Assembly: GCA_964650185.1 (NCBI GenBank)
Contig: CAZYRN010000003.1
Location: 2,025 to 66,024 of the forward strand
Direction: 5' to 3'
Length of the DNA: 64,000 bases
From: an uncultured Pseudomonadales bacterium
GTDB lineage: Bacteria > Patescibacteriota > Microgenomatia > UBA1400 > PJMF01
Shown here: one piece after another, positions 1,662 to 24,433 of the stretch
Position numbering within the stretch: position 1 is the stretch's first letter
Layout: every line of letters starts with the position of its first letter
Program-made: the position numbers and the translations under genes
Notes under the pieces: model-generated
Database searches by the model: none
Seen by the model: only the letters and a program-made list of their open reading frames with translations
Told to the model about the DNA's origin: nothing

Positions 1662-2110
1662 TCAACTCGGCCCACTACGTTAGCCATCAGCCAACCCTGC
1701 ACCAAATTCAATACTAAGCCCAGCACCACCGCAACTAGCCAAGAGCTGATACCCAGCCCAGCAATTAAAGCAAATCTCGCTACCAGCCACACCGCCCCGG
1801 CATTTAACACCCAGTACAAGGCTAGCCACTGCGTATTACTAAAGTTCAGCTGATACCAATTAGCCACCCATTCCACAATCGGAATAATTCCCACTGCCAT
1901 CAGTGCCACAATTGTCATCGAGTACAAAGCCCCTTGAAATGGAGTTAAGAGCTGGTTACCTAAGACAACAGCCTGGGGGAAAAACATATTTGCCACAATT
2001 ACGACTAAGGTATTCCCAATGATAAATGCAAATAACGCCGCACTGAGTTGGGCGAAAGAAGTCATGGGTTGCTCAAGCAATGGTTTCCTAATTACACGAT
2101 TTCTGGCCAT
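1658..2110 (-). CDS. Hypothetical integral membrane protein
   Basis: 150-aa ORF with 4 predicted TM helices. 4-nt overlap with the convergent upstream gene. Confidence 0.45.
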   Translation of the reverse strand: MARNRVIRKPLLEQPMTSFAQLSAALFAFIIGNTLVVIVANMFFPQAVVLGNQLLTPFQGALYSMTIVALMAVGIIPIVEWVANWYQLNFSNTQWLALYWVLNAGAVWLVARFALIAGLGISSWLVAVVLGLVLNLVQGWLMANVVGRVD

Positions 2111-2180
2111 ACCCGCCTTTCATGATTTATTGAGTACTAATTTGATTAAGTTATATCATATCTTCTGCTATCATAACTAT

Positions 2181-2861
2181 ATGATGACCATTCTTCATGG
2201 AGAGAACACTGTTAAATCACGAGCCAGACTTGTAGAGCTGCTACAGGAAAAATCCGAGCAAGGAGCCGCGGTTGAAAGAGTCGAGGCTAAAACACTTGCT
2301 CGAGCTGAACTGGAAACTAAATTAGTTAAAACGGATCTGTTTGGGACGGAGCGGGTGGTGGTCATTGAAGAGCTGCACTCATTGCCAAAATCTCAGCGCA
2401 AAAATGAGTTGATTGAGCTAGCAGCCACTAGCAACACCGATTTAATTTTATGGGAAAAAAGATCTCTTACCAAAACGATGCTGAAAAAATTCCCCCAAGC
2501 AGAAGTGGAGGAGTTCAAGCTGAGCAACGCACTCTTTGGCTGGCTGGATACACTCCGGGGAAATGGCGGCCAGACCCAACAGCTAACCGCTTTACATCAA
2601 GCTTTGGCAGCTGAAGATGCATATCTCTGCTTAATCATGTTAGCAAGACAGGTGCGGCTACTGATAGAAATTAAAGATGGCAGTCAGCCAGCTGGACCAC
2701 CTTGGATGATGAAAAAAATGAGCCATCAAGCCGACTCATTTACCATGCCGCAGCTGCTGCAACTTCACTCGCGGCTACTGGAAATTGACCTGGCTCACAA
2801 AACATCTACAAACAACCTCGAACTGGATCAAGAACTTGATTTGTTAATTATTAACCTGTAA
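2181..2861 (+). CDS. holA: DNA polymerase III delta subunit (short form)
   Basis: From an internal ATG at 2181 (MMTILHGEN...) the protein matches the HolA N-terminus (xxLFYGED/N..L). The track start at 2019 would overlap the convergent gene. Short (227 aa) compared with typical delta subunits. Confidence 0.55.
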   Translation: MMTILHGENTVKSRARLVELLQEKSEQGAAVERVEAKTLARAELETKLVKTDLFGTERVVVIEELHSLPKSQRKNELIELAATSNTDLILWEKRSLTKTMLKKFPQAEVEEFKLSNALFGWLDTLRGNGGQTQQLTALHQALAAEDAYLCLIMLARQVRLLIEIKDGSQPAGPPWMMKKMSHQADSFTMPQLLQLHSRLLEIDLAHKTSTNNLELDQELDLLIINL

Positions 2862-2960
2862 AGTGAAGAAGCTAATGAACACTTCATTAAATTGGTGCTT
2901 TTATTACTACAACTTCGATAGCAAACAAGACAAGTATTAATAAAATTGTTAGGAGCATCA

Positions 2961-4334
2961 ATGAAAATTACCCCCTCGATATTTAAGGATTACGATATTA
3001 GAGCAGTAGTTGATGAACAACTGGATTTAGCTGGAGTCAAACGAATTGGGCAAGGTTTGGTTGAACTATTTAAGCCGTCTCGAATCGCGGTGGGTTATGA
3101 TATGCGTAATTCCAGCCCCGAATGGAAAGAGGCTTTAATCTCAGGAATTACAACTCAAGGTGCAGACGTGATTGACCTTGGTTTAATTGCTACTGATATG
3201 ACTTATTTTGCTGCTGGGACACTTGATGTAGATCTAGCTGTGATGATTTCCGCTTCACATAACCCCCCTCAATTTAATGGCTTTAAAATTGTCAAACGAG
3301 GCGCGATTGGTGTCAGCGGTAACTCTGGTATTTATGAATTAAGAGATCTAGTTATTTCAGATCATGAATTTATTCCAGCAGCTCAATCAGGTTTGGTAAC
3401 TTCTCAAGATATCCTTGAAGATTGGGTTAATCATGCCATTTCCATGGTTGATGTGAAGCAGATTAAACCGCTTAAGGTTGTCATTGATGCCGGTAATGGC
3501 ATGGCTGGAAAAATTATTCCCGCCATTGAAGACCAACTACCAATTCAAGTAATCCCTCTATATTTTGAACTAGATGGAACATTTCCCAATCACCTGGCCA
3601 ACCCACTCCTACCTGAAACTTGGGATACAATTCAAGAGACCATTGCAGAAGAGAAAGCTGATCTTGGCATCATGTTTGACGGCGATGGAGACCGTATGTT
3701 TTTATTTGATGAACAAGGTAACTTTATTTCCGGAACCATTACCACAGCCATGGTAGCTGCTCAAATGCTCAAGAAATTCCCCCGTAGCACCATTCTTTAT
3801 AATGCTATCTGTGGTCGAGTTGTTCCAGAAACTGTTGCTAATTTAGGTGGCAAATCTCAACGTGTCAGAGTGGGCCATACCTTGATTAAAGAAGATATGC
3901 GCAAATATGATGGTCTTTTTGCAGGTGAACACTCTGGCCATTATTACTTTAGAGACAATTTCTCAGCTGATAGCGGCTTAATAGCTTCTCTGGTAGTTTT
4001 GGAGTTAATTAGTCAAGAAAATAAACGCATGTCGGAACTGGTGACTCAATTTGACCTTTACCCCAGCAGTGGTGAGATTAATTTCAGCGTTGAAGATAAA
4101 GCGGAAATGATGAAAGCTCTTGAAACAAAGTTTGCTGATGCTGAATCAAGTGACTGGCTCGATGGTGTTTCTATCTGGTATCCAACCTGGTGGGCAAATA
4201 TTCGCCCATCTAACACTCAGCCCGTCTTAAGATTAAATGTGGAAGCAGATAACCAACAGATACTTCAAGAAAAAACAGCAGAAATTAAATCATTTATTCT
4301 CAGTCATGGTGGTGAAATCGCAGAAGAACATTAA
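2961..4334 (+). CDS. Phosphomannomutase/phosphoglucomutase (alpha-D-phosphohexomutase)
   Basis: Active-site serine loop ISASHNPPQFNGFKI, a metal-binding DGDGDR loop, and a C-terminal sugar-phosphate-binding region. AGGAG RBS sits 6 nt before the ATG at 2961. Confidence 0.85.
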   Translation: MKITPSIFKDYDIRAVVDEQLDLAGVKRIGQGLVELFKPSRIAVGYDMRNSSPEWKEALISGITTQGADVIDLGLIATDMTYFAAGTLDVDLAVMISASHNPPQFNGFKIVKRGAIGVSGNSGIYELRDLVISDHEFIPAAQSGLVTSQDILEDWVNHAISMVDVKQIKPLKVVIDAGNGMAGKIIPAIEDQLPIQVIPLYFELDGTFPNHLANPLLPETWDTIQETIAEEKADLGIMFDGDGDRMFLFDEQGNFISGTITTAMVAAQMLKKFPRSTILYNAICGRVVPETVANLGGKSQRVRVGHTLIKEDMRKYDGLFAGEHSGHYYFRDNFSADSGLIASLVVLELISQENKRMSELVTQFDLYPSSGEINFSVEDKAEMMKALETKFADAESSDWLDGVSIWYPTWWANIRPSNTQPVLRLNVEADNQQILQEKTAEIKSFILSHGGEIAEEH

Positions 4335-4352
4335 TAAGAAAGGACCTTTATC

Positions 4353-5429
4353 ATGTCACAAACTCGTCTCTTTGATTTTGCCGAGGCGATGGAAAAACTC
4401 GACAAATCCGGCAACATTAGCTCTATCGAACAATTGGGTGACCAGATTCAGCATGTCTGGGAGTTAGCTCAACAGGTTGAGTTTGACGACTCTTATCAAC
4501 AAGTAGATAAGGTCATCGTCGCCGGCATGGGCGGTTCTACCATTGGCACTCATGTTATTCAAACAGTTTTTAAAGATGAGTTGAAAGTGCCGGTCGTCGT
4601 CGCCAGTGACTACGATGTCCCCAATTACGTTGATGAAAATACCTTAGTCATTGCCTCTAGTTATTCCGGCAACACTGAAGAAACCCTGAGCGCCGTCAAA
4701 GATGCTCAGCAAAAAGGGGCGAAAATTGCCGGCATTTCCTCTGGTGGTAAGTTGGCTGATTTCCTCCACGAGCATCATTATCCCGCGCTAGTTTTTACAC
4801 CCACCTACAACCCGTGCGGCTCTCCTAGAATGGCCCTTGGTTACTCCGTTTTTGGCCAAATAGCTTTATTTGCCCAAGCCGGTTTACTGAAAGTGACGGA
4901 AGAAGATTATCAGCAGGTTTTGCAAACTATAGCGGAAGGCCAGTTAACCTCCAGCCGCCATGTCCCTCAGGAAGAAAACCCTGCCAAACTGTTAGCATTT
5001 AATCTACTCGAGAGAATTCCGGTAATTACTGTCGCTGAACATTTGGAAGGACCAGCTCATGTTTTTGCCAATCAAATTCATGAAAACTCCAAAACCTACG
5101 CCAGCTATCGCGTTATACCCGAGTTTAATCACTTTGGTTTAGAAGGTTTGCAGCATCCCGTTTCAAACCGCGACAATTTAATGTTTTTTGTCATTCATTC
5201 TGACTTGTACAAGGAGAATAATCAGCACCGGCTTAAATTAACCGAAGAAGCGGTAACGCAAAATCACATCGAGTACGTCCATCAAACTTTAACCGGTCCC
5301 ACCAAGCTGGCACAAGCATTTGAACTAATTTTGTTAGGCAGCTATACCAGTTATTACCTGGCCATTCTGAATCAGGTTGATCCAACTCCCAATCCTTGGG
5401 TGGATTGGTTCAAACAGCAGTTGGCTTAA
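4353..5429 (+). CDS. Bifunctional phosphoglucose/phosphomannose isomerase (SIS-domain, archaeal-type PGI/PMI)
   Basis: SIS-domain motifs (VIVAGMGGSTIG, SYSGNTEET) and the overall length and organisation of the PGI/PMI family. Confidence 0.7.
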   Translation: MSQTRLFDFAEAMEKLDKSGNISSIEQLGDQIQHVWELAQQVEFDDSYQQVDKVIVAGMGGSTIGTHVIQTVFKDELKVPVVVASDYDVPNYVDENTLVIASSYSGNTEETLSAVKDAQQKGAKIAGISSGGKLADFLHEHHYPALVFTPTYNPCGSPRMALGYSVFGQIALFAQAGLLKVTEEDYQQVLQTIAEGQLTSSRHVPQEENPAKLLAFNLLERIPVITVAEHLEGPAHVFANQIHENSKTYASYRVIPEFNHFGLEGLQHPVSNRDNLMFFVIHSDLYKENNQHRLKLTEEAVTQNHIEYVHQTLTGPTKLAQAFELILLGSYTSYYLAILNQVDPTPNPWVDWFKQQLA

Positions 5430-5501
5430 CTTGCTAACTGGTATAGTGGAGATAACTGGTATTACTGCTGAGATTAACAGTTAGTCTAGATAGGGGAGAC
5501 C

Positions 5502-6689
5502 ATGAGGCCTCAACCGATGTACATTATTCCGCTTTTAATCAAGCAACCCACTTGGGGCGGAAAATATATAGCCCAGTATAAAAAAATTCAGGATGAGGAA
5601 ACGCTGGCCGCTAATATTGGGCAAGCTTACGAGTTGGCCCAAGACTCTCTCTTGATAGATGAGCCGATTGATCTCAAGCCAGGTGATCAATTGCCTTATC
5701 AATTGGCTGAGGCAACAGATCTGGAACACCCGCACTGGTTTGGAAAAAAATACCGGACAATTTCCATGCCTGATTTAATTAAAAAAAATGTTAAAGATAT
5801 CTTGGGTGAAAAAGTAGCTGCCAAGATGAATAATCAGATGGCTGTTTTGAATAAGTTTACTCAAGCTCAAGAAAATTCTTACCAAGTCCACGTTCAGCCA
5901 GACCAAACTTTTGAGAAATGGCAGCCTAAACCTGAATCCTGGTATTTTTTTGAGCAGGGCAAAGCAACTCTGGGCTTGAAGACTAACGCTAATGTGCTGG
6001 CATATCAAAACCGGTGCACGGAAATTTATGAGTATTCACAAGAGTTAAGCCGACAAGTCCGAGAAGGAGAGCTGGATGTGGCTGCCGCCAGAGAAAAATT
6101 GGAGAAGTTTATCAATCATGATCATCCCCGCCATTACGTCAATACACTAGAGCTAAAAGCTGGACAGATTGTTGATTTAAGTGAGGGCGGGATTCACCAC
6201 TCATGGGAGGCAGATGCCAACTTCCCCAAAGGCAATATTGTATATGAGGTACAGCTGGATCAGCGTGATGATGTCAGCTCAATACGAGCTTTTGATCAAG
6301 GTAAAATCAAAGATGACGGCAGTGTCCGTCAACTGGCGATCGAGGCTTACTTCAAGGCACTAAATATCAATGCGGATGCAAACCTGCCAGATCAATACCT
6401 GCAGAGCCATGATTCATTTCAAGACGATGATGGCTTAATCACTCATCTATTTGACTGCGAACACTATCGCTTGACTATGATAGAGTTTGACAAAAATTAC
6501 GGGGGTTTAGAGACACAGCTGGATGATGAGTTTCATCATCTGTTTGTCAAAGAGGGAGAGGTGGAAGTGAGGTATGATGGCCGGCGCTGGTTGGTACCCG
6601 CTGGATGGTCGATTTTCATCCCGGCTGGCTGTCAGCAGTACCAGTTATCCAGTACCGCGCCGGCCGTGGTTCTAAAAACTACTGCTTAA
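5502..6689 (+). CDS. Type I mannose-6-phosphate isomerase-like cupin protein (ManA-like)
   Basis: N-terminal PLLIKQPTWGG (compare ManA xxYAWGS), QVHVQPD (compare QVHPNK), and a C-terminal cupin segment (HHLFVKEGEVEV...WLVPAG). Confidence 0.5.
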   Translation: MRPQPMYIIPLLIKQPTWGGKYIAQYKKIQDEETLAANIGQAYELAQDSLLIDEPIDLKPGDQLPYQLAEATDLEHPHWFGKKYRTISMPDLIKKNVKDILGEKVAAKMNNQMAVLNKFTQAQENSYQVHVQPDQTFEKWQPKPESWYFFEQGKATLGLKTNANVLAYQNRCTEIYEYSQELSRQVREGELDVAAAREKLEKFINHDHPRHYVNTLELKAGQIVDLSEGGIHHSWEADANFPKGNIVYEVQLDQRDDVSSIRAFDQGKIKDDGSVRQLAIEAYFKALNINADANLPDQYLQSHDSFQDDDGLITHLFDCEHYRLTMIEFDKNYGGLETQLDDEFHHLFVKEGEVEVRYDGRRWLVPAGWSIFIPAGCQQYQLSSTAPAVVLKTTA

Positions 6690-6727
6690 CTCTTTCTGCG
6701 GAGCTGAACTTACGCTACACTAGTTCT

Positions 6728-8902
6728 ATGGAGATACCTGCCCTAATTCCTTTGTCTGCCGCTGATGGCTATGCTCGATCAGAAATAGGCGAGAGCGCTT
6801 TCCTGTTACACCAGGCTGCAAAACTGAAAGTGCCAGTCGCTGATTCTGTGATTATTACCCAAGCGGCCTTAGAAAAGATTGCTAGTCAGGGTAATTTTGC
6901 CAAACAACTGGAAAAAGCACTCCTTTCTTTTTCATTTAAGTCAGATCAACTGCCAGCCGAACTGGAAAAAATCAAAAGACAAATCCGGCAATTTCATCTG
7001 CCAGCTCAATTGACTGCTCCAATTATCAATTGGTATCATCTCCAGCCAACTTTTGTTAGTGTTAGCACAGATTACAAAACTGATCACCAGCATCCGCTCA
7101 AGATTGAAAATATCAAGGGTGAAGCTAATTTAATTGAGAGCATCCTAGCCTTGTGGTCTGAACAGCTCCAGTTTGATCCTAAACTAAAACAGCTCAAACT
7201 TTATGCCGAGCCCATGCTGCTGCAGCGACAAGGACAACCGGAAATATCTGGTTACGTGGAAACTCGATCTGACTTAAGTAAAACTAAAGCTTATGTTTAC
7301 AGTGTGTGGGGAGTCTATCAGCCTTACCATCCTGAAATCATGGCCGATGAGGTGGTGGTCGACATTCGTACTAATCAAGTGGTGCAGCGCAAAAATCAGC
7401 TTCAGTACCTGAGCTTAGAAAGACGAACTGATCATCTTCAAGAAAAAGCCTTGCTTTACTACAAACAAGGCGAGCTCAGCATGACAGATGAGATTGCACT
7501 CGATCTAGCCAGCTCTGCTGCCAGCCTGAAACGAAAATTTTTCACTGACTGCCGACTTTATTGGTCTTATCAACAGCATCACTTGGTCATCACTGGTTTT
7601 GAACGACTGGACCCTGCTCAAACTGGAGTAGTTGCTGAACCCAATATTCTCCTGACTGGCGATAGCTTGCTTTCTGGAATTGTGGGCGGCAGAGTGGTAA
7701 CAGATCTGACTCCAAAAAATAAAATTGCGACCGGTGACGTTTTGGTGGTCACTGAACTAACTTCTAAACACGCTTTGCTGCTGAAAAAAGTCTCTGCTAT
7801 TGTCTGTGATCGCGGCATTAAATCTACCCTACTGGTCAAGCAGTTGAAAGAATATCACTTACCAGCGGTCGTTAACACCATTCATGCCACTCATAAACTT
7901 AAACCTGGGCAGTACGTGATTGTGAATGCTAACTCTGGAAAAATTTTACAGTCTCCACAGCCTTTGGCCAGCGATCATTCATCTGCCAGCACCAATATTC
8001 CCACCATTACCAAGGTTTATATTTCTGCGGGCAATCCCCATAAGGCTGAAAGCTATGTCACCTCAGCAGTTGATGGGGTGGGGGTGTTGAGAAGTGAGTT
8101 TACTTTTGCCAGATTTGGCGAACACCCACTTCATTTAATTAAATCGTCACGTCGCCATCAGTTAAAACAAGAGCTGAAGCAAGTTATTACCACTTATCAG
8201 CAGACTAGGTTAAATCTGCCCGTCATTTACCGGACACAAAACTTTACTACTCAGGAGCTGAGCTATCTCACGCATGCCAGCCGTTACGAACCGACTGAAA
8301 CTAATCCTTACTTGGGATTTAGGGGCGGCATTAAGATGATTAGTGAGTTTGAGCTGTTTGATTTTGAGTTGGAAGTAATTAGTGAAGTCTTAACAGACAG
8401 CAAAGCACCGCTGGCCATCTTGCTCCCCTTCATTAGAACTCCAGGAGAAATGAGGTTGGTAATGAATCGAATTGCCAAGCATCAACTCCAGCATCACCCC
8501 CACTTTGCTGTTTATCTGCAACTAAATACACCTGAAAATGTCTTACAGCTAAAACATTATTTTATACCTGGTTTAGCTGGCGTTTCCGTCAATAGCCGCA
8601 GCCTACATGCGTTGATGCACGGCATCGACCCGGATAATCCCGATCTTTACCGTCAATACGCTTACAACCTGCAGTTGATGGAAGAGCTACTCATTAGAGT
8701 GCAGCGGGTGGTACACACCGTTGACTTCCAGCCTCAGGCTCTCCAAACTAGACCGAAAATGTTTTTACACTTAGAAGATCCGAGCTTGGAACTAGCGGAA
8801 ATTGCGGCTAAACTCAACTATGACGCGATTACCGTCAAACCAGAATTTGCCCCACGGGTGAAATCACGTATTAGAGAACTCGAAGAACGAAGATATGGCT
8901 AG
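6728..8902 (+). CDS. PEP-utilizing enzyme family protein (PEP synthase / pyruvate-phosphate-dikinase-like), divergent
   Basis: Three-domain layout: an N-terminal PEP/pyruvate-binding ATP-grasp-like region, a central mobile-domain-like segment (VLVVTELT...KKVSAIVCDRG...LPAVV), and a C-terminal PEP-utilizing TIM-barrel (DGVGVLRSEF, NPYLGFRGG). The internal ATG at 6728 was chosen because the upstream extension from 6605 is non-homologous. The protein lies directly upstream of eno and gpmI. Confidence 0.65.
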   Translation: MEIPALIPLSAADGYARSEIGESAFLLHQAAKLKVPVADSVIITQAALEKIASQGNFAKQLEKALLSFSFKSDQLPAELEKIKRQIRQFHLPAQLTAPIINWYHLQPTFVSVSTDYKTDHQHPLKIENIKGEANLIESILALWSEQLQFDPKLKQLKLYAEPMLLQRQGQPEISGYVETRSDLSKTKAYVYSVWGVYQPYHPEIMADEVVVDIRTNQVVQRKNQLQYLSLERRTDHLQEKALLYYKQGELSMTDEIALDLASSAASLKRKFFTDCRLYWSYQQHHLVITGFERLDPAQTGVVAEPNILLTGDSLLSGIVGGRVVTDLTPKNKIATGDVLVVTELTSKHALLLKKVSAIVCDRGIKSTLLVKQLKEYHLPAVVNTIHATHKLKPGQYVIVNANSGKILQSPQPLASDHSSASTNIPTITKVYISAGNPHKAESYVTSAVDGVGVLRSEFTFARFGEHPLHLIKSSRRHQLKQELKQVITTYQQTRLNLPVIYRTQNFTTQELSYLTHASRYEPTETNPYLGFRGGIKMISEFELFDFELEVISEVLTDSKAPLAILLPFIRTPGEMRLVMNRIAKHQLQHHPHFAVYLQLNTPENVLQLKHYFIPGLAGVSVNSRSLHALMHGIDPDNPDLYRQYAYNLQLMEELLIRVQRVVHTVDFQPQALQTRPKMFLHLEDPSLELAEIAAKLNYDAITVKPEFAPRVKSRIRELEERRYG

Positions 8903-10226
8903 TATTCAAGCAATTCAAGCTAGAGAAATTCTAAACTCGCAGGGGTTGCCCACGATTGAGTGCAATTTGTGGCTGGATACTGGTTATTTTGTCAGCACCA
9001 GCGTCCCCACCAGTAATAATCCAGGCAAAAATGAAGCGATTGAGCTACACGACAATCAACCTGAACGGATGGTGGGGAGAGGTGTGCTGGAAGCGGTTAA
9101 TAATATTAATAACATTATTGCCCCTGCCTTAGTTGGCCATGATCCCACCCAGCAAACCACTGCCGACCAACTCATGATCGATCTAGACGGTACCGCCAAT
9201 AAGGAAAAATTGGGTGCCAATGCTATCTTGGCTGTTTCGCAAGCAGTTTTAAAAGCTGGTGCAGTTAGTGTGGGGATGTCGCTTTATTACTACCTGCAGC
9301 AAAAATACCAGCTGACTGACTCTCTCAGGATCCCCACCGTCATCTACAGCATGCTTAATGGCGGTGCTCACGGAGCGCAAAACCTTGATCTGAAGGACTT
9401 TTCCATTATTCCTGCCAGCAACTTAGACTATCCCACTTCACTCAATATGGCGGTTAATTTTTTCCATAAACTGGAAGAGGTGTTGATAACTAAGGAAGCG
9501 ATTCACTGCGTTGGTAAAGCCGGCGGTTTTGCGCCAAATTTATATTCCAACACTGACGCGCTGCATATTTTATTGGAAACTTCTAAAGCCACTCCTTATA
9601 CCTTTACTCAGGATCTCTTTTTTGGCCTAGATGCTTCAGCTTTTAATTTTGTTTCAGAAAGCAAGTATAAACTTAAAGACAGAGCTCAGCCTTATACCGC
9701 TGATGAACTATTTACTTACTATCAGAATCTGCGTAACTCACATCAGGTGACCTACTTTGAAGATCCATTTAGCGAAGATGACTGGAAAGCTTGGCAAAAA
9801 ATTACGGCAGAATTGGGACCAACCACTAATATTGTCGGTGATAGCCTGTTAGTGACCAGTCAGGCCAAAGTTGCCGAAGCTATTGAGAAAAAAGCCTGCA
9901 ATGGCATCTCCATTAAGCCCAATCAAGCCGGCAGTATCAGCGAAACTATTGGCGTCATTAAACAAGCTCAAGATGCGGGCTGGAAAGTGACTATCTCTCA
10001 TCGCAGTGGTGAGACAAATGATACTTTCCTGGCTGATCTAGCCGTCGGAGTAGGGGCAGATTTTGCCAAGTTTGGCGCACCTAATCGAGGCGAAAGAGTG
10101 GCTAAGTACAATCGCTTACTAGAAATTCAGGCTGAGCTGGAACAGTTGACGGCCGTCCAGCCCGCCGACATTGTAACTGATCAAGTCAATCCTACGACTG
10201 ATCAAACCACAGCTGCAACCAGCTAG
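8895..10226 (+). CDS. eno: Enolase (phosphopyruvate hydratase)
   Basis: Enolase signature SHRSGETNDTFLADLAV, the IKPNQAGSISE loop and an N-terminal barrel domain. 8-nt overlap with the upstream gene. Confidence 0.92.
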   Translation: MASIQAIQAREILNSQGLPTIECNLWLDTGYFVSTSVPTSNNPGKNEAIELHDNQPERMVGRGVLEAVNNINNIIAPALVGHDPTQQTTADQLMIDLDGTANKEKLGANAILAVSQAVLKAGAVSVGMSLYYYLQQKYQLTDSLRIPTVIYSMLNGGAHGAQNLDLKDFSIIPASNLDYPTSLNMAVNFFHKLEEVLITKEAIHCVGKAGGFAPNLYSNTDALHILLETSKATPYTFTQDLFFGLDASAFNFVSESKYKLKDRAQPYTADELFTYYQNLRNSHQVTYFEDPFSEDDWKAWQKITAELGPTTNIVGDSLLVTSQAKVAEAIEKKACNGISIKPNQAGSISETIGVIKQAQDAGWKVTISHRSGETNDTFLADLAVGVGADFAKFGAPNRGERVAKYNRLLEIQAELEQLTAVQPADIVTDQVNPTTDQTTAATS

Positions 10227-10261
10227 TGTTACCATGATTGAAATGATTTAGAATAGAGAAC

Positions 10262-11980
10262 ATGACTGATCAAATAATGGACCAAACTCAGCCCAACCCC
10301 ACCTCTCAGCCCAACCTTAGCTCTCAACCTTTCACTGAGACACATCCCCGCAACAGCTATCAAGGCATTAAACCAGTGGTCCTGCTGATTCTAGATGGCT
10401 GGGGCATTGGTCCCAACAATGCCGGCAATGCCATTACTCAAGCCCACACACCTAACATGGATAAATACTGGATCAGTTTTCCCCATACTCAGCTAGCTGC
10501 CAGCGGTGAAGCAGTTGGTTTGCCGCGCGGTGAGGATGGTAATACAGAGACTGGTCACCTCAATATTGGAGCTGGCCATATCGTTTACCAAGACTTACCC
10601 AGAATTAACATGTCCATTGCTGATGGCTCTTTTTTTAATAACCAAGCCCTCTTAAATGCGGTCCAGCATGTCAAACAAAATAACTCGGTGTTGCACCTGA
10701 TGGGCTTAATCGGCGCGGGCGGAGTTCATTCCAATATTGAACATCTCTATGCCTTGCTTAATTTTGCCAAAAAGAACAACTTAGAAAAAGTTTATATTCA
10801 TGGCTTTACCGATGGCCGAGACTCGCCGCCTACGGCAGGGGTTAATTACATCCAGCAGTTGCAGGAAAGATGCAAGCAGCTAGGAATAGGCCGCATCGCC
10901 ACACTCATGGGTCGTTACTATGGCATGGATCGTGACAAGCGCTGGGAAAGAATTGAAAAAGCCTACAACGCTCTCACCATTGGGGCAGCCGCCTGTACTC
11001 AAGATCCCATCGCAGCTTTACAAGAGCAGTACAGCCAAAATATCACTGACGAGTTTATTGAACCAATTGCCGTTTGTGATGAATCAGGCCAGCCACAAAC
11101 TATTCAGGATAATGATGCTGTCATCTTCTTTAACTATCGAATTGATCGGCCGCGGGAGCTGACCAGAGCCTTCGTTCAGCCTAATTTTGAAGAGGGCATT
11201 AAGCACCAAGCTTTTGACCCTTATACCGAAAAGTATGAGAAAACCAACATTCAGCCTCAAGTTCACATCTCCACTTTTCAGCGGCAAAAAATTATTAACA
11301 ATCTGTATTTTGTCACCATGACCAGATATGAAGAAGGTTTGCCAACTGATGTGGCTTTTCCGCCACAGTTTGTTAAAAACCCAATTGGCAAAGTTTTGGC
11401 CACTCATGGCATTAAACAATTGCGGATAACAGAGACTGAAAAAGAACGGTTTGTCACTTACTACATGAACGGCCAGATTGAAGAGCTTTTTCCAGGCGAA
11501 GATCGTGCCATCTTACCCTCCAAGGGAGTCAAATCTTATGATGAGGCACCTGAGATGAGCGCTCGAGAAATTACCGATCAAATGTTGGACCGGTTGTTTA
11601 AATATGACTATGACGTGGTCATTGCCAACATTTGCAATGGTGATATGGTGGGTCACACCGGCAACCTAGAAGCTGCCATCAAGGCTTGCGAAGTGGTGGA
11701 TGAAGTAGTAGGCAGAATTGTTGATGCCGTCTCTGCTCATGGCGGCATAGTCCTGATCACAGCTGATCATGGTAATGTTGAAGAAATGATTGATACTGAA
11801 ACCGGCCAAGTCGACACTGAACACTCCACTTATCCCGTGCCATTTATCGTCGTTGGTCCTCAATATGCTGGTCAGCCAGTCCAACTGCCGACGGGCATCT
11901 TGGCAGATATTGCACCAACTATGCTACACTTAATGGGTTTGCCCAAGCCTGATACTATGACGGGCCGGGCGTTAATTTAG
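10262..11980 (+). CDS. gpmI: 2,3-bisphosphoglycerate-independent phosphoglycerate mutase
   Basis: Typical iPGM N-terminus (VVLLILDGWGIG), metal/phospho-serine region, and C-terminal ITADHGN motif. Confidence 0.92.
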   Translation: MTDQIMDQTQPNPTSQPNLSSQPFTETHPRNSYQGIKPVVLLILDGWGIGPNNAGNAITQAHTPNMDKYWISFPHTQLAASGEAVGLPRGEDGNTETGHLNIGAGHIVYQDLPRINMSIADGSFFNNQALLNAVQHVKQNNSVLHLMGLIGAGGVHSNIEHLYALLNFAKKNNLEKVYIHGFTDGRDSPPTAGVNYIQQLQERCKQLGIGRIATLMGRYYGMDRDKRWERIEKAYNALTIGAAACTQDPIAALQEQYSQNITDEFIEPIAVCDESGQPQTIQDNDAVIFFNYRIDRPRELTRAFVQPNFEEGIKHQAFDPYTEKYEKTNIQPQVHISTFQRQKIINNLYFVTMTRYEEGLPTDVAFPPQFVKNPIGKVLATHGIKQLRITETEKERFVTYYMNGQIEELFPGEDRAILPSKGVKSYDEAPEMSAREITDQMLDRLFKYDYDVVIANICNGDMVGHTGNLEAAIKACEVVDEVVGRIVDAVSAHGGIVLITADHGNVEEMIDTETGQVDTEHSTYPVPFIVVGPQYAGQPVQLPTGILADIAPTMLHLMGLPKPDTMTGRALI

Positions 11981-11995
11981 CAAAAAGGGAATATT

Positions 11996-12682
11996 ATGGG
12001 TGGAATTACATCATTTCTAATCGAGTTAATGCAGGAGCTGGCTCAGCGTGTGCCGTTACCGCTCTTCACTGTGCTCGGTGCCATGATTGAAGAAATTTTG
12101 GCGCCAATTCCATCACCGGTCATCATGACCTTATCTGGTTCATTAGCTGCCGCTAGCAATCAGCCCATCTCGTATTTAGCATTTTTAGCCTTAATCGGTG
12201 CCATCGCCAAAACTTTTGGCAGCTGGGTAGTTTATCTTGTCGCTGATAAGGCGGAAGACTTCATTATTAGCAAATTTGGTCGAATTCTCGGTGTCAGCAA
12301 AGACGATACGGAAGGTTTTGGCAAATATCTCAACAAAGGCTGGCGGGATGACATTGTATTATTCTTACTCAGAGCCCTACCCATCATGCCTACCGCCCCA
12401 GTCTCAGTTGTGTGTGGCTTAATTAAGCTCAATCTGCGCACCTATCTGGTATCAACCTTTTTCGGCACCATCGTCCGCAATGCTTTTTATCTTTACTTTG
12501 GCTACACCAGCCTGCATGCTTTGGAAACAATCAATGAAGGCTTTGACAGTCTAGAAACCATTGGCTACATCATTTTGGCTGTCTTGTTTGGCGGTTTGAC
12601 ACTCTGGTTCTACAAAAAAAGACGATCTGGCCAAGAGCTGTCCTTCTTTGACCGAGTGACTAAGATCCTCAAAATTAAATAA
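11996..12682 (+). CDS. DedA/TVP38 (VTT-domain) family membrane protein
   Basis: 228-aa polytopic membrane protein with DedA-like re-entrant-loop motifs. Assignment is moderate. Confidence 0.5.
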   Translation: MGGITSFLIELMQELAQRVPLPLFTVLGAMIEEILAPIPSPVIMTLSGSLAAASNQPISYLAFLALIGAIAKTFGSWVVYLVADKAEDFIISKFGRILGVSKDDTEGFGKYLNKGWRDDIVLFLLRALPIMPTAPVSVVCGLIKLNLRTYLVSTFFGTIVRNAFYLYFGYTSLHALETINEGFDSLETIGYIILAVLFGGLTLWFYKKRRSGQELSFFDRVTKILKIK

Positions 12683-12824
12683 TTAGTACCAAAAAGACGA
12701 ATCACCTCACTTTCACCCGAACTCAACTGAATTTTGATACTGCCTCATTCTTGATGTTTGTTATATTTTGATAGCTTAAGATCATATTGCATCTTCGCTT
12801 CTCTTTCGGTTATGCTGTATTTAA

Positions 12825-12845
12825 TTCGGGAAGTTTACGCCCGAA
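12825..12845. promoter_or_regulatory. Perfect inverted repeat TTCGGG-N9-CCCGAA 28 nt upstream of the lexA start (candidate operator or 5'-UTR hairpin)
   Basis: 6-bp perfect inverted-repeat arms seen directly. Position fits a LexA autoregulatory box, but the motif matches no LexA-box consensus known to me. Confidence 0.3.
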
Positions 12846-12873
12846 GCAGTAGTTAAGTTCAGAAAGGATTCAG

Positions 12874-13494
12874 GTGGCGGTAACTCTCTACAAACGGCAA
12901 CGGCAAATTTTAGATTTTATTGCTCAGTATATTCAGAGCAATGGTTATGCGCCCACCCTACAGGAAATTGCGACAGCAATTGGCGTTTCTTCTTTAGCAA
13001 CTGTTCATGAACATCTCCAAGCTTTAGAGCGGAAGAAAGTGATCCGCCGCTTTGATGGTCAAGTGAGAGGCATTGAAGTTGTTGATCGAACTTTCCTTAA
13101 TTCTGATGAAGGCATTGATGTCCCCATCATGGGTTTTATCGCGGCCGGCAAGCCAATTGAGCCTTATCAGGATCCCGATGCTTCTTTTAAAGTCTCACCA
13201 GAAATGATTTCAGGTAAAAAACGCGCATACGTCTTGCAAGTTAAAGGTCAGTCAATGATCGAGGATCATATTGATGACGGCGACTACGTGGTCATTGAGG
13301 AAACTCAAGAAGTCAGTGATGGCGATATCGTGGTAGCTCTGTTGGATAATGGGCTAGCTACTTTAAAGCGCTACTACAAAGAGGTGACACGAGTCAGACT
13401 TGAACCAGCTAACTCCAACATGAGCCCCATCTATGCCGTCAACGTGCAGATTCAGGGTAGAGTAGTGGGGCTGATTCGGAAGTTTAAGTATTAA
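12874..13494 (+). CDS. lexA: LexA repressor (S24 peptidase)
   Basis: N-terminal winged HTH. Ala-Gly cleavage-site region (FIAAGKPIEP). Catalytic Ser in the GQSM motif and Lys in LATLKR. GTG start with an AAGGA RBS. Confidence 0.88.
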   Translation: MAVTLYKRQRQILDFIAQYIQSNGYAPTLQEIATAIGVSSLATVHEHLQALERKKVIRRFDGQVRGIEVVDRTFLNSDEGIDVPIMGFIAAGKPIEPYQDPDASFKVSPEMISGKKRAYVLQVKGQSMIEDHIDDGDYVVIEETQEVSDGDIVVALLDNGLATLKRYYKEVTRVRLEPANSNMSPIYAVNVQIQGRVVGLIRKFKY

Positions 13495-13539
13495 GAACTT
13501 CTTCTTATTTTCGTATCTTAATATATCTAACTATATAAA

Positions 13540-13561
13540 AGCAGTTACTAAGCAGTTACTA
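13540..13561. repeat. Tandem direct repeat (AGCAGTTACTA x2)
   Basis: Two perfect 11-nt copies lying directly next to the CIRCE-like element. Confidence 0.5.
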
Positions 13562-13565
13562 ATCA

Positions 13566-13592
13566 TTAGCACTCCCATCGTCAGACTGCTAA
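13566..13592. promoter_or_regulatory. CIRCE-like inverted repeat TTAGCACTC-N9-GACTGCTAA
   Basis: Matches the HrcA operator consensus TTAGCACTC-N9-GAGTGCTAA at 17 of 18 positions. Unusually, it sits in the 3' intergenic region between the convergent lexA and PduO-like genes. Confidence 0.4.
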
Positions 13593-13627
13593 TTCACCAT
13601 TTTCATTTTTTTAATTGATGTACAGGG

Positions 13628-14212
13628 TTATTTCTTACTCTTTAATTCTTTTTCTTGGTATTGTTGCAACTGATTAATTTGGCATCTTAACAAATATAGA
13701 TAGTCAGACAAGCGGTTAAGAAATTTTAAAATCACTGGTGAGACAGTGGTTACTTCACTTAACTTAAAACCAACTCTTTCCGCTCGCCGCGCTACTGTCC
13801 GCGCCACATCAAAATATCCACCCAGCACCGTACCGCCAGGAAACAAAAACTGCCGGTGCCAATCATCAGCCAACTGCTCTTGTAGCACGTCAGCCTTGGC
13901 TTCTAAATCTGCCAAATCAGCTTCCTGATATTTTTTGCCAGGGTATTGAGCTACTTCCGCACTAATTTCATATAACTGCTGCTGAATTTTTTCTAAATCA
14001 GCCCTCATGGCTGGAGCGGAAAACTTTTCTGTCGCCGCCTTGGCCAAATCAGCCTCTTTTTCTCTCAACTCAGCCACAATTAAACCCAGCCAAGAACTCA
14101 ACTCATCCAGCCCACCTATAAACTCCATCACCAGGCTATGTTTAGGCACGCGCTTGCCATTCGCCAAGCTGGTCTGACCTTGGTCACCGGTTTTAGTTGA
14201 GATAGAGATCAT
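13628..14212 (-). CDS. PduO-type ATP:cob(I)alamin adenosyltransferase-family protein
   Basis: N-terminal ISTKTGDQGQTSLANGKRVPK (compare the PduO/MMAB motif TKTGDxGxTSLxxGxRxxK) and the helical-bundle remainder. ATGA start/stop overlap with the upstream CofE-like gene. Confidence 0.7.
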   Translation of the reverse strand: MISISTKTGDQGQTSLANGKRVPKHSLVMEFIGGLDELSSWLGLIVAELREKEADLAKAATEKFSAPAMRADLEKIQQQLYEISAEVAQYPGKKYQEADLADLEAKADVLQEQLADDWHRQFLFPGGTVLGGYFDVARTVARRAERVGFKLSEVTTVSPVILKFLNRLSDYLYLLRCQINQLQQYQEKELKSKK

Positions 14213-14997
14213 TTCTTAGTCTCCCAAGGAGCTGCTAACAACATCGGTCCGTAAACATCATCTTTCATCTTGATCTGCAGCTCGTTAATTTCTTTTTGAG
14301 TGGTAGCGCGATTTTGAAACTGCACCATTTTTGAATCTTGAATCAGGCAAAGTGGCTGAGCTTCGTCCGTTTCACCCATTTCCAAGACTGCCGCTACTGC
14401 TAAAGCTTCCGCCACTGCAACTTGAGTCATCTGCATCTGGTGACCAAATAAATCAGCTTGACCAATCTTATTATTCAGCGCCTTAAAACCACAATGACCC
14501 AAGCTGGTGCCAATCACACCCCACTTGAGAGGAAAAGTTCGACTGTCAGTAATCACCACCCCGACTTCTTTAACTCCAAACTCTTTTCTTAAAAATTGCC
14601 AGATCTGACGTGCGGACCGATAGGGATTTTCCGGCAGCAAAATGTAGTGACCATTGGCATTTGACTCATCAACACCGGCATTGACCGCCACCGTGCTGTG
14701 TTTGACAGTAATCATGATCTGGTACTGCGAGTGCGAAGCATCGATATAGGCTTCAGCCTCCTGCTTAGCCAGCAGTTGTTTTTCTTCTTTAGTGCCTGTC
14801 TGGATGGGCACCAGCCGGCCTTCGCAGATGGCAACTACCTTAGAAGTGACCGCCAGAACGCTTTTCTCGGGCAATTCTCGGACAGAATCTCTAATTAAAG
14901 CCAATAAATCATAGCCTTCATGAATGACTGGCGTAGCAATGGGTGTAACTCTCATAACCCGAATTATAACGCCTTTAGCTGTATAATGAAGATTCAT
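14209..14997 (-). CDS. CofE-like F420-0:gamma-glutamyl ligase family protein
   Basis: PF01996-like motifs: SKVVAICEGR, VVITDSRTFPLKWGVIGTSLG, and a C-terminal DLFGHQMQMTQVAVAEALAVAAVLEMGETDEAQPLCLI. An alternative start at M15 (14955) is possible. Confidence 0.65.
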   Translation of the reverse strand: MNLHYTAKGVIIRVMRVTPIATPVIHEGYDLLALIRDSVRELPEKSVLAVTSKVVAICEGRLVPIQTGTKEEKQLLAKQEAEAYIDASHSQYQIMITVKHSTVAVNAGVDESNANGHYILLPENPYRSARQIWQFLRKEFGVKEVGVVITDSRTFPLKWGVIGTSLGHCGFKALNNKIGQADLFGHQMQMTQVAVAEALAVAAVLEMGETDEAQPLCLIQDSKMVQFQNRATTQKEINELQIKMKDDVYGPMLLAAPWETKK

Positions 14998-15025
14998 GCC
15001 TAAGTTACATTTCTTATAATTTCTA

Positions 15026-17407
15026 ATGCTTAAACTAAAATCTGCTTACCAGCCTACCGGCGATCAGCCCCAAGCAATTGAGGCTTTGACTGCTGGAGTC
15101 CAAAATGGCAATCCGCACCAGGTTTTACTAGGTGTGACGGGCTCAGGCAAGACATATTCGATCGCCAATGTCATTGAAAAAACGCAAAAACCGACTTTAG
15201 TTATCGCTCACAACAAAACTTTAGCAGCTCAGCTCTATCAAGAGTTTAGAGATTACTTTCCTAATAATGCGGTCAGTTACTTTGTTTCTTACTACGATTA
15301 CTACCAACCAGAGGCGTACATTCCCACCACTGATACCTATATCGAGAAGGAAACCGATATTAACGATGAGATTGATAAACTACGCCTGGCCGCTACCACC
15401 AACTTGCTGACTCGAGATGATGTGATAGTCGTGTCGTCTGTATCATGTATTTATAACTTGGGTTCACCGGTGCAGTATGGCAAGTATGTGCTGGAAATAG
15501 TCGAGGGGGAGTTGATCGGCAGGAAAGATTTACTGCTGAGGCTATCTCAGTTGCAATACGAAAACTCTGCAGCTGATTTACGGCGCGGTACTTATCGAGT
15601 CCGAGGCGATACGATTCAGCTCTGGCCAGCCTATGAAGACCGAGCACTGCGGATTGAAACTTTAGAAAATAAGATCACCCAAATCAAGTGGATTGATCCC
15701 GTCACTGGCAGCAATATTCCTCAACATCAGCTTGATCAATACGAGCAGCAGCAGCGGGCATTCACCATCTACCCCGCCAAGCACTACATGATTAACCCCA
15801 AAACTCAGGATCAGGCCTTGGCTGAGATCAAGCGTGATCTTGAGGTCAGGCTGAAGGAGTTGCAGGCAGAAAACAAAGTTTTTGAGGCTCATCGACTGCA
15901 GCAGCGAGTTAATTATGATATGGAGATGATTCGCGAGTTTGGCTTCGTCAATGGTATTGAGAACTACTCGAGGTATTTTGACGGTCGTCAAGCCAATGAT
16001 CCGCCTTTCTCATTACTGGATTATTTTCAGCATAATGCCCAAGAGTTTGGCCACGACTCATTTTTAACCATAATTGACGAAAGTCATATGACGATTCCGC
16101 AAATTAGAGGTATGTACGCTGGGGACCAGTCAAGAAAAAGTACCCTGGTAGATTACGGTTTCCGACTGCCCAGTGCTTTAGATAATCGGCCACTGCGTTT
16201 TGATGAGTTTTTAGCCAGAACCCCTCAAACGATTTATGTCTCCGCCACTCCTAAAGAATGGGAAATAGAACAAGCGAGAGGGAAAGTAGTGGAGCAGCTG
16301 GTGCGGCCAACTGGACTGCTTGACCCAGAAATTGAACTGCGGCCAACTCAAAGCCAGATTGAAGACTTAATTATTGAGATCATTAAGCGGAAGTTAATTG
16401 GCCAACGGGTGCTAGTAACCACTTTAACTAAAAAAATGGCTGAAGCCTTGACTGAGTACCTCAATGATCGGCACAAAATTGACCAGCTAGTCCAAAGTTT
16501 TATTGAGAAACAGCGCCAGCAGCAGGCACAGCTTGATCCAGAGCGGGTGATTAACGCTAACGAGATGCTGCCAGTGGGTGAGTTGGAAATTGGTAAGCTT
16601 GATCATCGCTACCAGACGCAGGCTGAGCTACCGCCAGAGATGCTGAGATACTTTGAGGCGGTGAATCGGGGAGAAGAGCAGGGAGAAGCCGTGGGTAATG
16701 CAAGTGAAGGCGCCGACCCAAGTGAAGCCACGGCTGAGTGGTATCCAAAAGTTGCCTACTTGCACGCGGATGTGGAAACTTTTGAGCGGTCGGACATCTT
16801 AGATGAGCTACGGCAGGGAGCATATGACGTGGTGGTGGGAATAAACTTGCTGCGGGAAGGACTAGACTTGCCCGAAGTGACGCTGGTGGCTATTTTAGAC
16901 GCAGATAAAGAGGGCTTTTTAAGATCACGCATCTCCTTAATTCAGACGATGGGGAGGGCGGCGCGACACGTCGAGGGGCAAGCGATTTTATACGCTGACA
17001 ATTTAACCGGCTCGATGCGGGAGGCGATCGCGGAAACCCAGCGCCGCCGCCTAGTTCAGCTCGAGTACAATCAACAACATGGCATTGATCCGCAAACAAT
17101 TGTGAAGCCAATTCGAGAACGACTGATTGAAAAAAAAGAAGAGACTGAAGACAGCACCACACTTACTAGAGGTTTTCGCTTCCAGGATCAGGGTCAAGCT
17201 ACCTATGGTCAGCCGCTGATGATTGACCTCGATGGTAAACAAATTGACCTGAACCAGGTTGATTTTGATGCCATGACCCCACCTGATTTGAAAAAGTTTT
17301 TGAAAAAAATCTCCCAGCGAATGCGTCAGGCTGCCGCTGAGATGGACTTTGAACTCGCTGCAGTCTTGCGAGATTGGATTAAAGCTCAGTCTGACTCAGC
17401 AAACTAA
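15026..17407 (+). CDS. uvrB: Excinuclease ABC subunit B, with a ~90-aa insertion
   Basis: Walker A GVTGSGKT, a YYDYYQPEAY beta-hairpin region, helicase motifs (GINLLREGLD, QTMGRAAR), and a C-terminal UVR domain. 793 aa against ~670 typical; the extra segment falls between LTEYL...H and KVAYLH. Confidence 0.92.
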   Translation: MLKLKSAYQPTGDQPQAIEALTAGVQNGNPHQVLLGVTGSGKTYSIANVIEKTQKPTLVIAHNKTLAAQLYQEFRDYFPNNAVSYFVSYYDYYQPEAYIPTTDTYIEKETDINDEIDKLRLAATTNLLTRDDVIVVSSVSCIYNLGSPVQYGKYVLEIVEGELIGRKDLLLRLSQLQYENSAADLRRGTYRVRGDTIQLWPAYEDRALRIETLENKITQIKWIDPVTGSNIPQHQLDQYEQQQRAFTIYPAKHYMINPKTQDQALAEIKRDLEVRLKELQAENKVFEAHRLQQRVNYDMEMIREFGFVNGIENYSRYFDGRQANDPPFSLLDYFQHNAQEFGHDSFLTIIDESHMTIPQIRGMYAGDQSRKSTLVDYGFRLPSALDNRPLRFDEFLARTPQTIYVSATPKEWEIEQARGKVVEQLVRPTGLLDPEIELRPTQSQIEDLIIEIIKRKLIGQRVLVTTLTKKMAEALTEYLNDRHKIDQLVQSFIEKQRQQQAQLDPERVINANEMLPVGELEIGKLDHRYQTQAELPPEMLRYFEAVNRGEEQGEAVGNASEGADPSEATAEWYPKVAYLHADVETFERSDILDELRQGAYDVVVGINLLREGLDLPEVTLVAILDADKEGFLRSRISLIQTMGRAARHVEGQAILYADNLTGSMREAIAETQRRRLVQLEYNQQHGIDPQTIVKPIRERLIEKKEETEDSTTLTRGFRFQDQGQATYGQPLMIDLDGKQIDLNQVDFDAMTPPDLKKFLKKISQRMRQAAAEMDFELAAVLRDWIKAQSDSAN

Positions 17408-17594
17408 TTTAACCAACCAACTCAGCGAACTGACGCTACTGATAATTAATACCCGCTTCTTACTTACCGACCCTGCCAGCCGAGACGGAAAAGCGGTATA
17501 ATGTAGGTTTGCGTTTTTTGCGATTTACGCACAAAATTACGTACGGATCAAATACAAAAAACTAAAAAATTTATACAAAAAAACTAAATAACTT

Positions 17595-24429: not shown

Positions 24430-24433
24430 CAGT

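Follow-up and report, generated by a model that had tools for sequence, protein, structure and literature searches.

A phosphoenolpyruvate synthase ortholog without dikinase residues, probably a pseudoenzyme, encoded beside enolase in Patescibacteria

The window considered here, the whole 64-kb stretch of contig CAZYRN010000003.1 that was analysed (64,000 nucleotides), encodes a 724-residue homolog of phosphoenolpyruvate (PEP) synthase (PEPS) and pyruvate phosphate dikinase (PPDK) directly upstream of enolase. We are confident that this protein is a PEPS ortholog that is not a dikinase. The interconversion of pyruvate and ATP with PEP, AMP, and Pi is predicted to be beyond it, as the residues of the ATP site, the phosphohistidine, and the residues of the PEP/pyruvate-Mg site are all missing, and mutation of the histidine alone abolishes activity in this enzyme class. 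It is probably a PEPS-derived pseudoenzyme, meaning that residues essential to the ancestor have been lost while selection has retained the protein, a definition that leaves room for new catalysis. The window genome belongs to the Candidate Phyla Radiation (CPR)/Patescibacteria, and its nearest relatives are metagenome-assembled genomes labelled Candidatus Pacebacteria, Paceibacterota, or Patescibacteria; one more distant degenerate member of the family comes from Candidatus Woesebacteria.

Domain architecture and homology

The window protein is a PEPS/PPDK homolog. It has the three-domain architecture of that family (ATP-grasp, swivel, and TIM barrel), as seen in the order of its Pfam matches and in an AlphaFold (AF2) model. 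The gene and its domains are as follows.

6728..8902, + strand: PEPS-like gene, 724 residues, stop codon at 8900-8902 (list of open reading frames, ORFs)
6728..7615, + strand: N-terminal ATP-grasp-like domain, residues 1-296; partial PPDK_N, fold match to the ATP-binding domain of rifampin phosphotransferase (RPH) and to HpeI
7643..7960, + strand: swivel-like (PEP-utilizers mobile) domain, residues 306-411, lacking the carrier His; PF00391 over residues 335-404
8000..8899, + strand: C-terminal TIM barrel (PEP-utilizers_C), residues 425-724; PF02896 at 8e-20, conservation highest among the domains, pocket remodelled

A Pfam profile alignment, proposed as a check in a preliminary description of this DNA that was made from the sequence alone, matches all three families in order: PPDK_N (1.6e-4), PEP-utilizers (PF00391, 6e-8), and PEP-utilizers_C (PF02896). 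The PPDK_N match is below the gathering score and spans residues 31-104 only (74 residues). The swivel region also matches NCBIfam NF004978, a PEPut-bearing pyruvate kinase type, at 2.8e-6. The best sequence match in the Protein Data Bank is PEPS of P. furiosus (8a8e, 6.7e-34). The AF2 model was made from a 30-sequence alignment and has a mean pLDDT of 86.5; when it is searched at whole length with Foldseek, the top match is N. meningitidis PEPS (2ols, E 2e-38), followed by PPDKs (E ~1e-25). The barrel alone has a TM-score, normalised to the target, of 0.86 against the barrel of 8a8e, and the fold of the N-domain resembles the ATP-grasp of RPH and HpeI (0.71-0.77, normalised in the same way). 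The PEPS equivalog cut-offs are not reached, the scores being 185.4 bits versus 598 for NF005057 and 167.5 bits versus 739.75 for TIGR01418. The TIGR01418 score also lies under the relaxed CPR-specific cut-off of 591.8 bits (Jaffe et al.).

Loss of the phospho-carrier and nucleotide sites

In an alignment anchored by a hidden Markov model (HMM) of canonical PEPS, the window protein retains three of 16 catalytic or substrate-binding residues, and the other 13 are replaced or deleted. A profile search of 1.84 billion representative proteins gave 963 matches below 1e-30, and a residue census took in 168 distinct sequences anchored to the same canonical profile: the 150 best representatives together with the window protein and the 21 homologs closest to it. 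Most of these relatives retain one to five of the 16 residues, with a tail of intermediates that retain 6-15, counts that depend on the quality of the alignment. Three arginines of the barrel are the most persistent, being present in 145, 124, and 94 of the 168; the equivalent of Arg532 is the one found in 145.

The segments that stand in place of the phospho-carrier and nucleotide motifs are as follows.

7808..7852, + strand: DRGIKSTLLVKQLKE, residues 361-375, in place of GGxT(S/C)HAAIVSRE; L368 (7829-7831) at the His position
6785..6817, + strand: IGESAFLLHQA, residues 20-30, in place of VGGKGANLGEM; S23 at the Lys (K22 equivalent)
7055..7093, + strand: VSVSTDYKTDHQH, residues 110-122, in place of VAVRSSATAEDLPxASFAGQQ, the loop about seven residues shorter (alignment and three-group consensus)

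The GGxT(S/C)HAA motif of the swivel domain is described as strongly conserved across PEPS from every species, and related dikinases become inactive when the His is mutated (PMC12167813). The phospho-carrier of P. furiosus PEPS is His442, and its catalytic cysteine, Cys756, donates a proton to the pyruvate enolate (preprint). At the GGxT(S/C)HAA(I/V) site the window segment reads DRGIKSTLLV, and HMMER places D361-R-G-I-K-S-T-L368 opposite D435-E-G-G-R-T-S-H442 of 8a8e, with S366-T367 opposite T440-S441. L368 thus stands opposite H442, as the preliminary description had proposed in finding no His at the carrier position. Family members carry L, M, I, T, S, or N at this position, and none of those aligned has His. 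Nearby histidines were considered as carriers and rejected. The two that the preliminary description had named as able to overturn its proposal are not placed at the site by the alignment: H348 (SKHALL) aligns 20 residues upstream, H377 (EYHLP) aligns nine residues downstream, and the family conserves neither of them. H386 and H389 lie within 9-21 residues off position; H386 is common in long forms and is Gln in several members.

None of the canonical nucleotide-site residues (the GGK Lys, the RSS Arg loop, the DxEW Glu, and the QxR Gln and Arg) is kept in the window protein, as judged by alignment. VGGKGANLGEM aligns with IGESAFLLHQA, so that GGK becomes GES, and the earlier reading of GGKxANL as replaced by IGESAFL holds; the family consensus at the GGK position is VGEQ. 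The RSSATAEDLP loop is missing, and the Glu of DIEW and the Gln and Arg of QTRP are swapped for other residues in the alignment. The equivalents of K22, R92, E, Q, and R337 are, in that order, S, the deleted loop, Y, G, and E.

A remodelled TIM barrel

The barrel motifs of the window protein are as follows.

8075..8101, + strand: GVGVLRSEF, residues 450-458, with the kept Arg455, the Arg of LRxE; aligned with GVGLFRTEF of Enzyme I and with PEPS
8222..8257, + strand: VIYRTQNFTTQE, residues 499-510, with the kept Arg502 (IYRT, xYRxxD motif); the Lys of DFK is T507
8303..8329, + strand: NPYLGFRGG, residues 526-534, with the kept Arg532 (NPxLGxRG); Met is Tyr528
8516..8539, + strand: LQLNTPEN, residues 597-604, in place of MMVEIP; the Mg-ligand Glu is N600 and Met is Q598
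8579..8614, + strand: GVSVNSRSLHAL, residues 618-629, GSNDLT replaced by NSRSLH; Asn-Asp (Mg ligand) is R624-S625 and Thr is H627
8621..8641, + strand: GIDPDNP, residues 632-638; the Arg of DRD is P635
8756..8779, + strand: KMFLHLED, residues 677-684, in place of xICGQxPS; the catalytic Cys is F679, and H681 and E683 are new and conserved
8828..8848, + strand: ITVKPEF, residues 701-707, with Lys704, specific to the family, where the last barrel strand ends

The C-terminal motifs had been described as retained. This is correct for LRxE, xYRxxD, and NPxLGxRG with their three substrate-binding arginines, of which R502 and R532 are invariant in the family and R455 is at least 90% conserved. It does not extend to the Mg2+ ligands (the Glu of MxE(I/V)P and the Asp of NDL), which are not kept in the alignment, nor to the DRD Arg, the DFK Lys, or the catalytic Cys, all of which are lost; there is no cysteine within residues 425-724 of the window protein. 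The DFK Lys is Thr in 98 of the 168 relatives, and Pro occupies the DRD Arg position in 103.

Some 20 full-length orthologs (long forms), at 39-47% identity to the window protein, bear the same substitutions. At nineteen sites, canonical PEPS has one residue and the long-form family a different one, each with at least 90% conservation, and 15 of the 19 lie in the barrel. These fixed but changed barrel sites include K to T507, M to Y528, M to Q598, E to N600, D to S625, T to H627, R to P635, and P to E683. N600, S625, and H627 are invariant in long forms, and comparison of consensus sequences adds K704 and H681 as further family-specific barrel residues. The changed barrel sites fall at or just after predicted strands (AF2 model and consensus). 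Barrel sites that are conserved but different in this way are unlike the product of simple decay.

Distribution of the family and short forms

A scan with one genome per species gave 13 related loci (L001-L013). In every locus that reaches upstream, the order is phosphomannomutase (PMM), glucose-6-phosphate isomerase (PGI), a cupin gene in some, the PEPS-like gene, enolase (eno), cofactor-independent phosphoglycerate mutase (iPGM) in some, and LexA; L005 and L009 end just upstream of the PEPS-like gene. The PEPS-like gene and enolase are adjacent in all 13 loci, and in the canonical-PEPS loci as well. An intact ORF is found in more than 100 clusters at 50% identity.

In five of these loci, and in P0021 and P0022, the same genomic slot holds a short form of ~610-640 residues from which the swivel domain and its linkers have been cleanly excised, leaving the ATP-grasp-like domain joined straight to the barrel. 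Since swivel-less proteins of ~610 residues hold this slot, the phospho-relay appears to be dispensable. The signature N600/S625/H627/H681/E683/K704 is common to the long forms and the nearest short forms. In the census, the carrier His is missing from 133 of the 168 relatives, and the swivel is absent or unalignable in 53 of those 133. A crude neighbour-joining tree of the barrel orders canonical proteins, intermediates, and a strongly degenerate clade as a gradient, with the short forms beside the long-form clade of the window protein; this mosaic pattern is indicative only.

Two loci have more divergent slot-holders, at 28-31% identity, that have decayed further (L007, 10007-12175; L013, 10001-11794). 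The L013 protein has lost the Arg of LRSE (YNSG) and the H681/E683/K704 signature, and the L007 protein keeps a swivel without the carrier His, has D at the N600 position, and lacks E683. These two may have decayed to a later stage or may serve another function.

Orthology with canonical PEP synthase

The genes around the PEPS-like gene form a conserved run.

2019..20588, + strand: conserved syntenic block of holA-like, PMM/PGM, PGI, (cupin), PEPS-like, eno, iPGM, (VTT/DedA), LexA, (two minus-strand genes), UvrB, and UvrA
2946-4334, + strand: PMM/PGM, in the same-strand run
4353-5429, + strand: PGI, bacterial-type, in the same-strand run
5502-6689, + strand: cupin/mannose-6-phosphate isomerase-like ORF, 395 residues, between PGI and the PEPS-like gene
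8895..10226, + strand: enolase, directly downstream, its start inside the end of the PEPS-like gene
10262-11980, + strand: iPGM, after enolase

The start of the PEPS-like gene at 6728 is common to independent gene callers, the family alignment supports Met there, and an identical 724-residue gene call is present on eight other contigs. An alternative ATG at 6605 was discarded because a reading frame from there would run into the preceding gene and because the family alignment begins at M6728, in agreement with the other gene calls. At its 3' end, the stop codon overlaps the ATG of enolase by 8 nucleotides (ATGGCTAG; ...TAT GGC TAG / ATG GCT AGT...), and iPGM is next, in keeping with the position immediately upstream of enolase and iPGM that the preliminary description gave.

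The nearest canonical sequences (P0023-P0031) are 24-28% identical to the window protein and have all 16 catalytic residues. One of them, P0024, is on a contig of 604 kb, where the genes run holA-like, PMM, PGI, PEPS, eno, iPGM, LexA, UvrB, UvrA, and the window shares these nine genes with it in the same order; the neighbours are 27-62% identical and the PEPS pair 26%. Canonical PEPS occupies the same slot in other loci too, the nine-gene block being shared with L020 and L021 and a partial block with L022. P0023 is flanked by PGI, PMM, and enolase, and its 90%-identity cluster holds a Candidatus Collierbacteria protein named 'phosphoenolpyruvate synthase'. Because a canonical PEPS with 16 of 16 residues fills the same syntenic slot, we infer that the window protein, lacking its carrier His, descends in place from a working PEPS. 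The preliminary description had called it a non-canonical or non-catalytic paralog. That it is not a canonical dikinase stands, the His and the nucleotide-site residues being missing family-wide and the swivel being deleted in some members; it is not a paralog, however, but a positional ortholog by nine-gene synteny.

LexA (12874-13494, + strand) is 79-91% identical in amino acid sequence between the window and the 13 loci, compared with 48-66% for enolase, 42-68% for PGI, and 26-47% for the PEPS-like protein. LexA sits beside glycolytic genes and UvrB/UvrA in all 13 loci and is inverted in L020. The ORF at 5502-6689 has only sub-threshold matches to cupin and mannose-6-phosphate isomerase; it is present in the window and in L003 (55% identity) and absent from the other related loci.

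Purifying selection

All three domains are under purifying selection, and the gene is not a pseudogene. Synonymous sites are saturated in all pairs (proportion of synonymous differences, pS, 0.59-0.81; of nonsynonymous differences, pN, 0.11-0.37), so that the ratios of nonsynonymous to synonymous divergence (omega) given here are approximate, upper-bound estimates with finite values from the closest pairs only. For those pairs omega is ~0.06-0.13, versus ~0.06 for enolase of the same genomes. By domain, it is 0.09-0.18 for the N-domain, 0.06-0.13 for the swivel (long forms), and at most 0.09 for the barrel where synonymous divergence is finite. The barrel has a mean pairwise identity of 57% and 19% invariant columns (58 of 300), versus 47-49% and 9-10% in the other domains. 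Nonsynonymous divergence of the PEPS-like gene is about twice that of enolase.

Other features of the window

GAPDH (46399-47490, + strand) lies ~35 kb from eno/iPGM, alone between FemAB-like and Mg-chelatase/ComM-like genes, and neither phosphoglycerate kinase nor triosephosphate isomerase was found among the ORFs scanned in the 64-kb window. Enolase has a C-terminal tail of ~25 residues rich in Q, T, P, and D (...QPADIVTDQVNPTTDQTTAATS, 10150-10226), and iPGM has an N-terminal extension of ~35 residues of similar composition (MTDQIMDQTQPNPTSQPNLSSQP..., 10262-10370). Alignments with relatives cover iPGM only from about residue 11-20 onward and enolase only as far as about residue 415-439, and the tails look lineage-specific.

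A complete, solitary 16S rRNA gene lies at 31921-33419 (+ strand), with ClpB starting ~1 kb downstream. Rfam found no 23S or 5S gene across the 64-kb window, and the rRNA genes appear to be unlinked. A cluster at 21153-28083 (+ strand) encodes a transglutaminase-core protein, a seven-transmembrane domain described as 'usually fused to an inactive transglutaminase', a sugar-transfer-associated ATP-grasp protein, and a MATCAP-like peptidase; UvrC (23026-24429) is inside this cluster, and its ORF as listed overlaps the transglutaminase ORF by 167 nucleotides. At 13628-14997 (- strand), a cobalamin adenosyltransferase-like gene (PF01923) adjoins an F420-0:gamma-glutamyl-ligase-like gene (PF01996), an odd pair for a reduced genome that is also present on other contigs of the same organism. 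Three ORFs have no Pfam match at E <= 1e-5: 40706-42352 (+ strand, 548 residues), 30420-31538 (- strand, 372 residues), and 75-740 (+ strand, 221 residues).

Discussion

As to what this PEPS ortholog does, we tentatively place first, with slightly less than even confidence, a non-catalytic binder or regulator. In a Pacebacteria/Woesebacteria-type branch of the CPR, a working PEPS has lost the catalytic residues of all three centres, yet its gene has persisted whole at its place in the operon, closely coupled to enolase and under purifying selection. The feature held longest would be an anion-binding barrel without a metal site (R455, R502, and R532), its pocket having been re-tooled into a more polar one (T507, Y528, Q598, N600, S625, H627, H681, E683, and K704), and R/K624 adjoins the lost metal-ligand position. 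Such a protein could bind or sense, without a metal, some phosphorylated or carboxylated three-carbon metabolite, for example PEP or phosphoglycerate, with the dead domains perhaps serving as structural or interaction modules. The preliminary description suggested a protein binding PEP or pyruvate only, which is not a given, the Mg ligands and the acid/base Cys being lost, and which stays one possibility.

Several points weigh against a binder or regulator. R/K624 is not universal, with T or Q there in some short forms, and the geometry of the pocket comes from strand ends and homology only. The invariant N600, S625, H627, and P635, and the His, Glu, Lys, Ser, and Tyr residue types of the pocket, would suit a new enzyme at least equally. 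The enolase linkage is present for the canonical enzyme too; because canonical PEPS has the same arrangement, the linkage is inherited and is no evidence of a complex. Finally, no second PEPS, PPDK, or pyruvate kinase was found among the ORFs scanned in the 64-kb window.

The binder reading has its strongest competitor in a neofunctionalised enzyme, a serious alternative that we consider less likely. Its barrel would have been rebuilt around H627, H681, E683, K704, Y528, N600, and S625 for another reaction on a phosphorylated intermediate, with no metal or with a metal bound by His and Glu; it may fill a missing CPR step, for instance one that makes pyruvate from PEP where pyruvate kinase is lacking, or one involving a sugar phosphate, with the other domains being structural. 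That 15 of the 19 type-II sites lie in the barrel, at former Mg-ligand, Lys, and Arg positions among others, favors this idea, as does their location at the C-terminal ends of predicted strands, where the active sites of TIM barrels lie. The barrel is also the most constrained domain, its six-residue signature is common to long and nearest short forms, and pyruvate kinase is reported in only about one-third of CPR genomes (PMC7304191). In the extended set, however, N600 is found in 63%, S625 in 34%, H627 in 63%, and E683 in 46%, and L007 and L013 are without several of these residues. A dead ATP-grasp domain of ~300 residues is kept in every form, whereas a streamlined genome would be expected to shed it if only the barrel mattered. 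Moreover, the residues name no reaction, and the pocket is known from sequence and strand positions only. A broader proposal, somewhat less probable still, spans both readings: an unrecognised enzyme or metabolite-gated regulator built on the PEPS chassis might use a remodelled, Mg-independent barrel pocket, in which the three arginines are joined by new His, Glu, Lys, Tyr, Asn, and Ser residues, to act on PEP or a neighbouring phospho-intermediate and supply one of the 'missing' CPR steps, with the swivel-less short form as its minimal version.

It is improbable that the protein is a pure scaffold, binding no small molecule and keeping an ancestral role in protein-protein contacts or assembly, for example in forming oligomers or in docking enolase or other glycolytic enzymes. 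Purifying selection is similar on all three domains, including the swivel that lacks its His, and the nearest solved relatives are archaeal-type PEPS (8a8e, 9dae), which form large assemblies through the barrel domain. What the window protein has in common with canonical enzymes, however, is the anion-binding Arg triad with the NPxLGxRG loop rather than patches on the surface, and the swivel is dispensable in sister lineages. The window protein also ends about where short canonical PEPS end, without the C-terminal extension of the archaeal 24-mer; assembly into an archaeal-type 24-mer is unlikely, as this extension is tied to the 24-mer.

A decaying relic, meaning a PEPS made redundant by pyruvate kinase or another route and heading for deletion, is very unlikely. 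The mosaic loss of catalytic residues with many intermediates (5-13 of 16), a nonsynonymous divergence about double that of enolase, and the deletion of the swivel in some lineages would fit such a course. The selection analysis largely refutes it, with omega ~0.1 in every domain at saturated synonymous sites; ORFs are full length without frameshifts or stops at 39-47% identity and beyond, 58 of 300 barrel columns are invariant, and a small CPR genome would not be expected to have kept a useless 2.2-kb stretch for so long. Least probable of all is a dikinase that works through non-canonical residues, such as Ser366/Thr367 as phosphate carrier: these residues do align with T440-S441 of P. furiosus PEPS, for which a preprint proposes Thr440 as a phosphorylated intermediate, but the Ser/Thr positions vary in the family (S, I, N, V, D, T), the ATP and Mg/Cys sites are destroyed too, some orthologs lack the whole swivel domain, and the related dikinases do not survive mutation of His (PMC12167813).

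Among known systems, the closest is PEP synthase itself (PpsA, EC 2.7.9.2; the short CPR/archaeal type of ~750-780 residues with GGxTSH). The window protein has the same domain order, fold, and operon slot, and shares with it the Arg triad, the NPxLGxRG loop, and the PFxRT and GxHP motifs; it differs in scoring 167-185 bits against cut-offs of 598-740 and in keeping three of 16 residues. PPDK (EC 2.7.9.1) belongs to the same fold family and is the next-best structural match, at only 11-14% identity. The window protein has no equivalents of K22, R337, T453, and His455, which we take to be the targets of the PPDK mutant structures (1jde, 2dik, 1ggo). The barrel also aligns with Enzyme I of the phosphotransferase system (PtsI) at GVGLFRTEF, IRTLD, and NPFLGYRA, with very weak similarity (E 0.16-4e-3), and the three arginines are presumably the counterparts of R296, R332, and R358 of E. 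coli Enzyme I. Unlike Enzyme I, the window protein lacks the Mg ligands, the Cys502 equivalent, a His189-type carrier, and the HPr-binding domain (Cys502 and His189 being, we assume, E. coli Enzyme I numbers).

The PEPut domain of PykA keeps the TSH motif. In B. subtilis PykA this swivel domain has a regulatory, non-metabolic role (PMC9009071), and it offers the nearest functional analogy, a regulatory swivel; it sits, however, on an active kinase, whereas here the swivel has no carrier His and is part of a wholly inactive scaffold. RPH, HpeHI, and phenylphosphate synthase have homologous ATP-grasp and swivel domains and illustrate that the scaffold can be repurposed. In those dikinases the catalytic His is present, the ATP site is active (PMC12167813), and another substrate domain replaces the barrel, whereas the window family keeps the barrel and loses the chemistry. 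HpeI was considered as a case of a repurposed barrel, which is wrong, as HpeI is the ATP-grasp component. Judged by its residues, the window protein is predicted to work like no characterised member (PEPS, PPDK, Enzyme I, RPH, or HpeHI), all of which depend on a His relay. No description of PEPS homologs in CPR that lack this His was found in a full-text literature search.

CPR bacteria without pyruvate kinase, about two-thirds of genomes, could use PEPS to interconvert PEP and pyruvate (Jaffe et al., PMC7304191). The TIGR01418 cut-off of that study would silently exclude the proteins described here. Annotation of the family is inconsistent, with 'pyruvate, water dikinase' at JGI and 'hypothetical protein' or 'PEP/pyruvate-binding domain-containing protein' at NCBI, and reading 'pyruvate, water dikinase' literally would wrongly complete glycolysis at its last step, or gluconeogenesis at its first, in these genomes. 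The family would also record the evolution of a pseudoenzyme, in which a central enzyme lost three active sites in place, and later a whole domain in some lineages, under selection throughout and with intermediates preserved. The retention of a 2.2-kb dead enzyme in a small genome points to an unrecognised function beside enolase.

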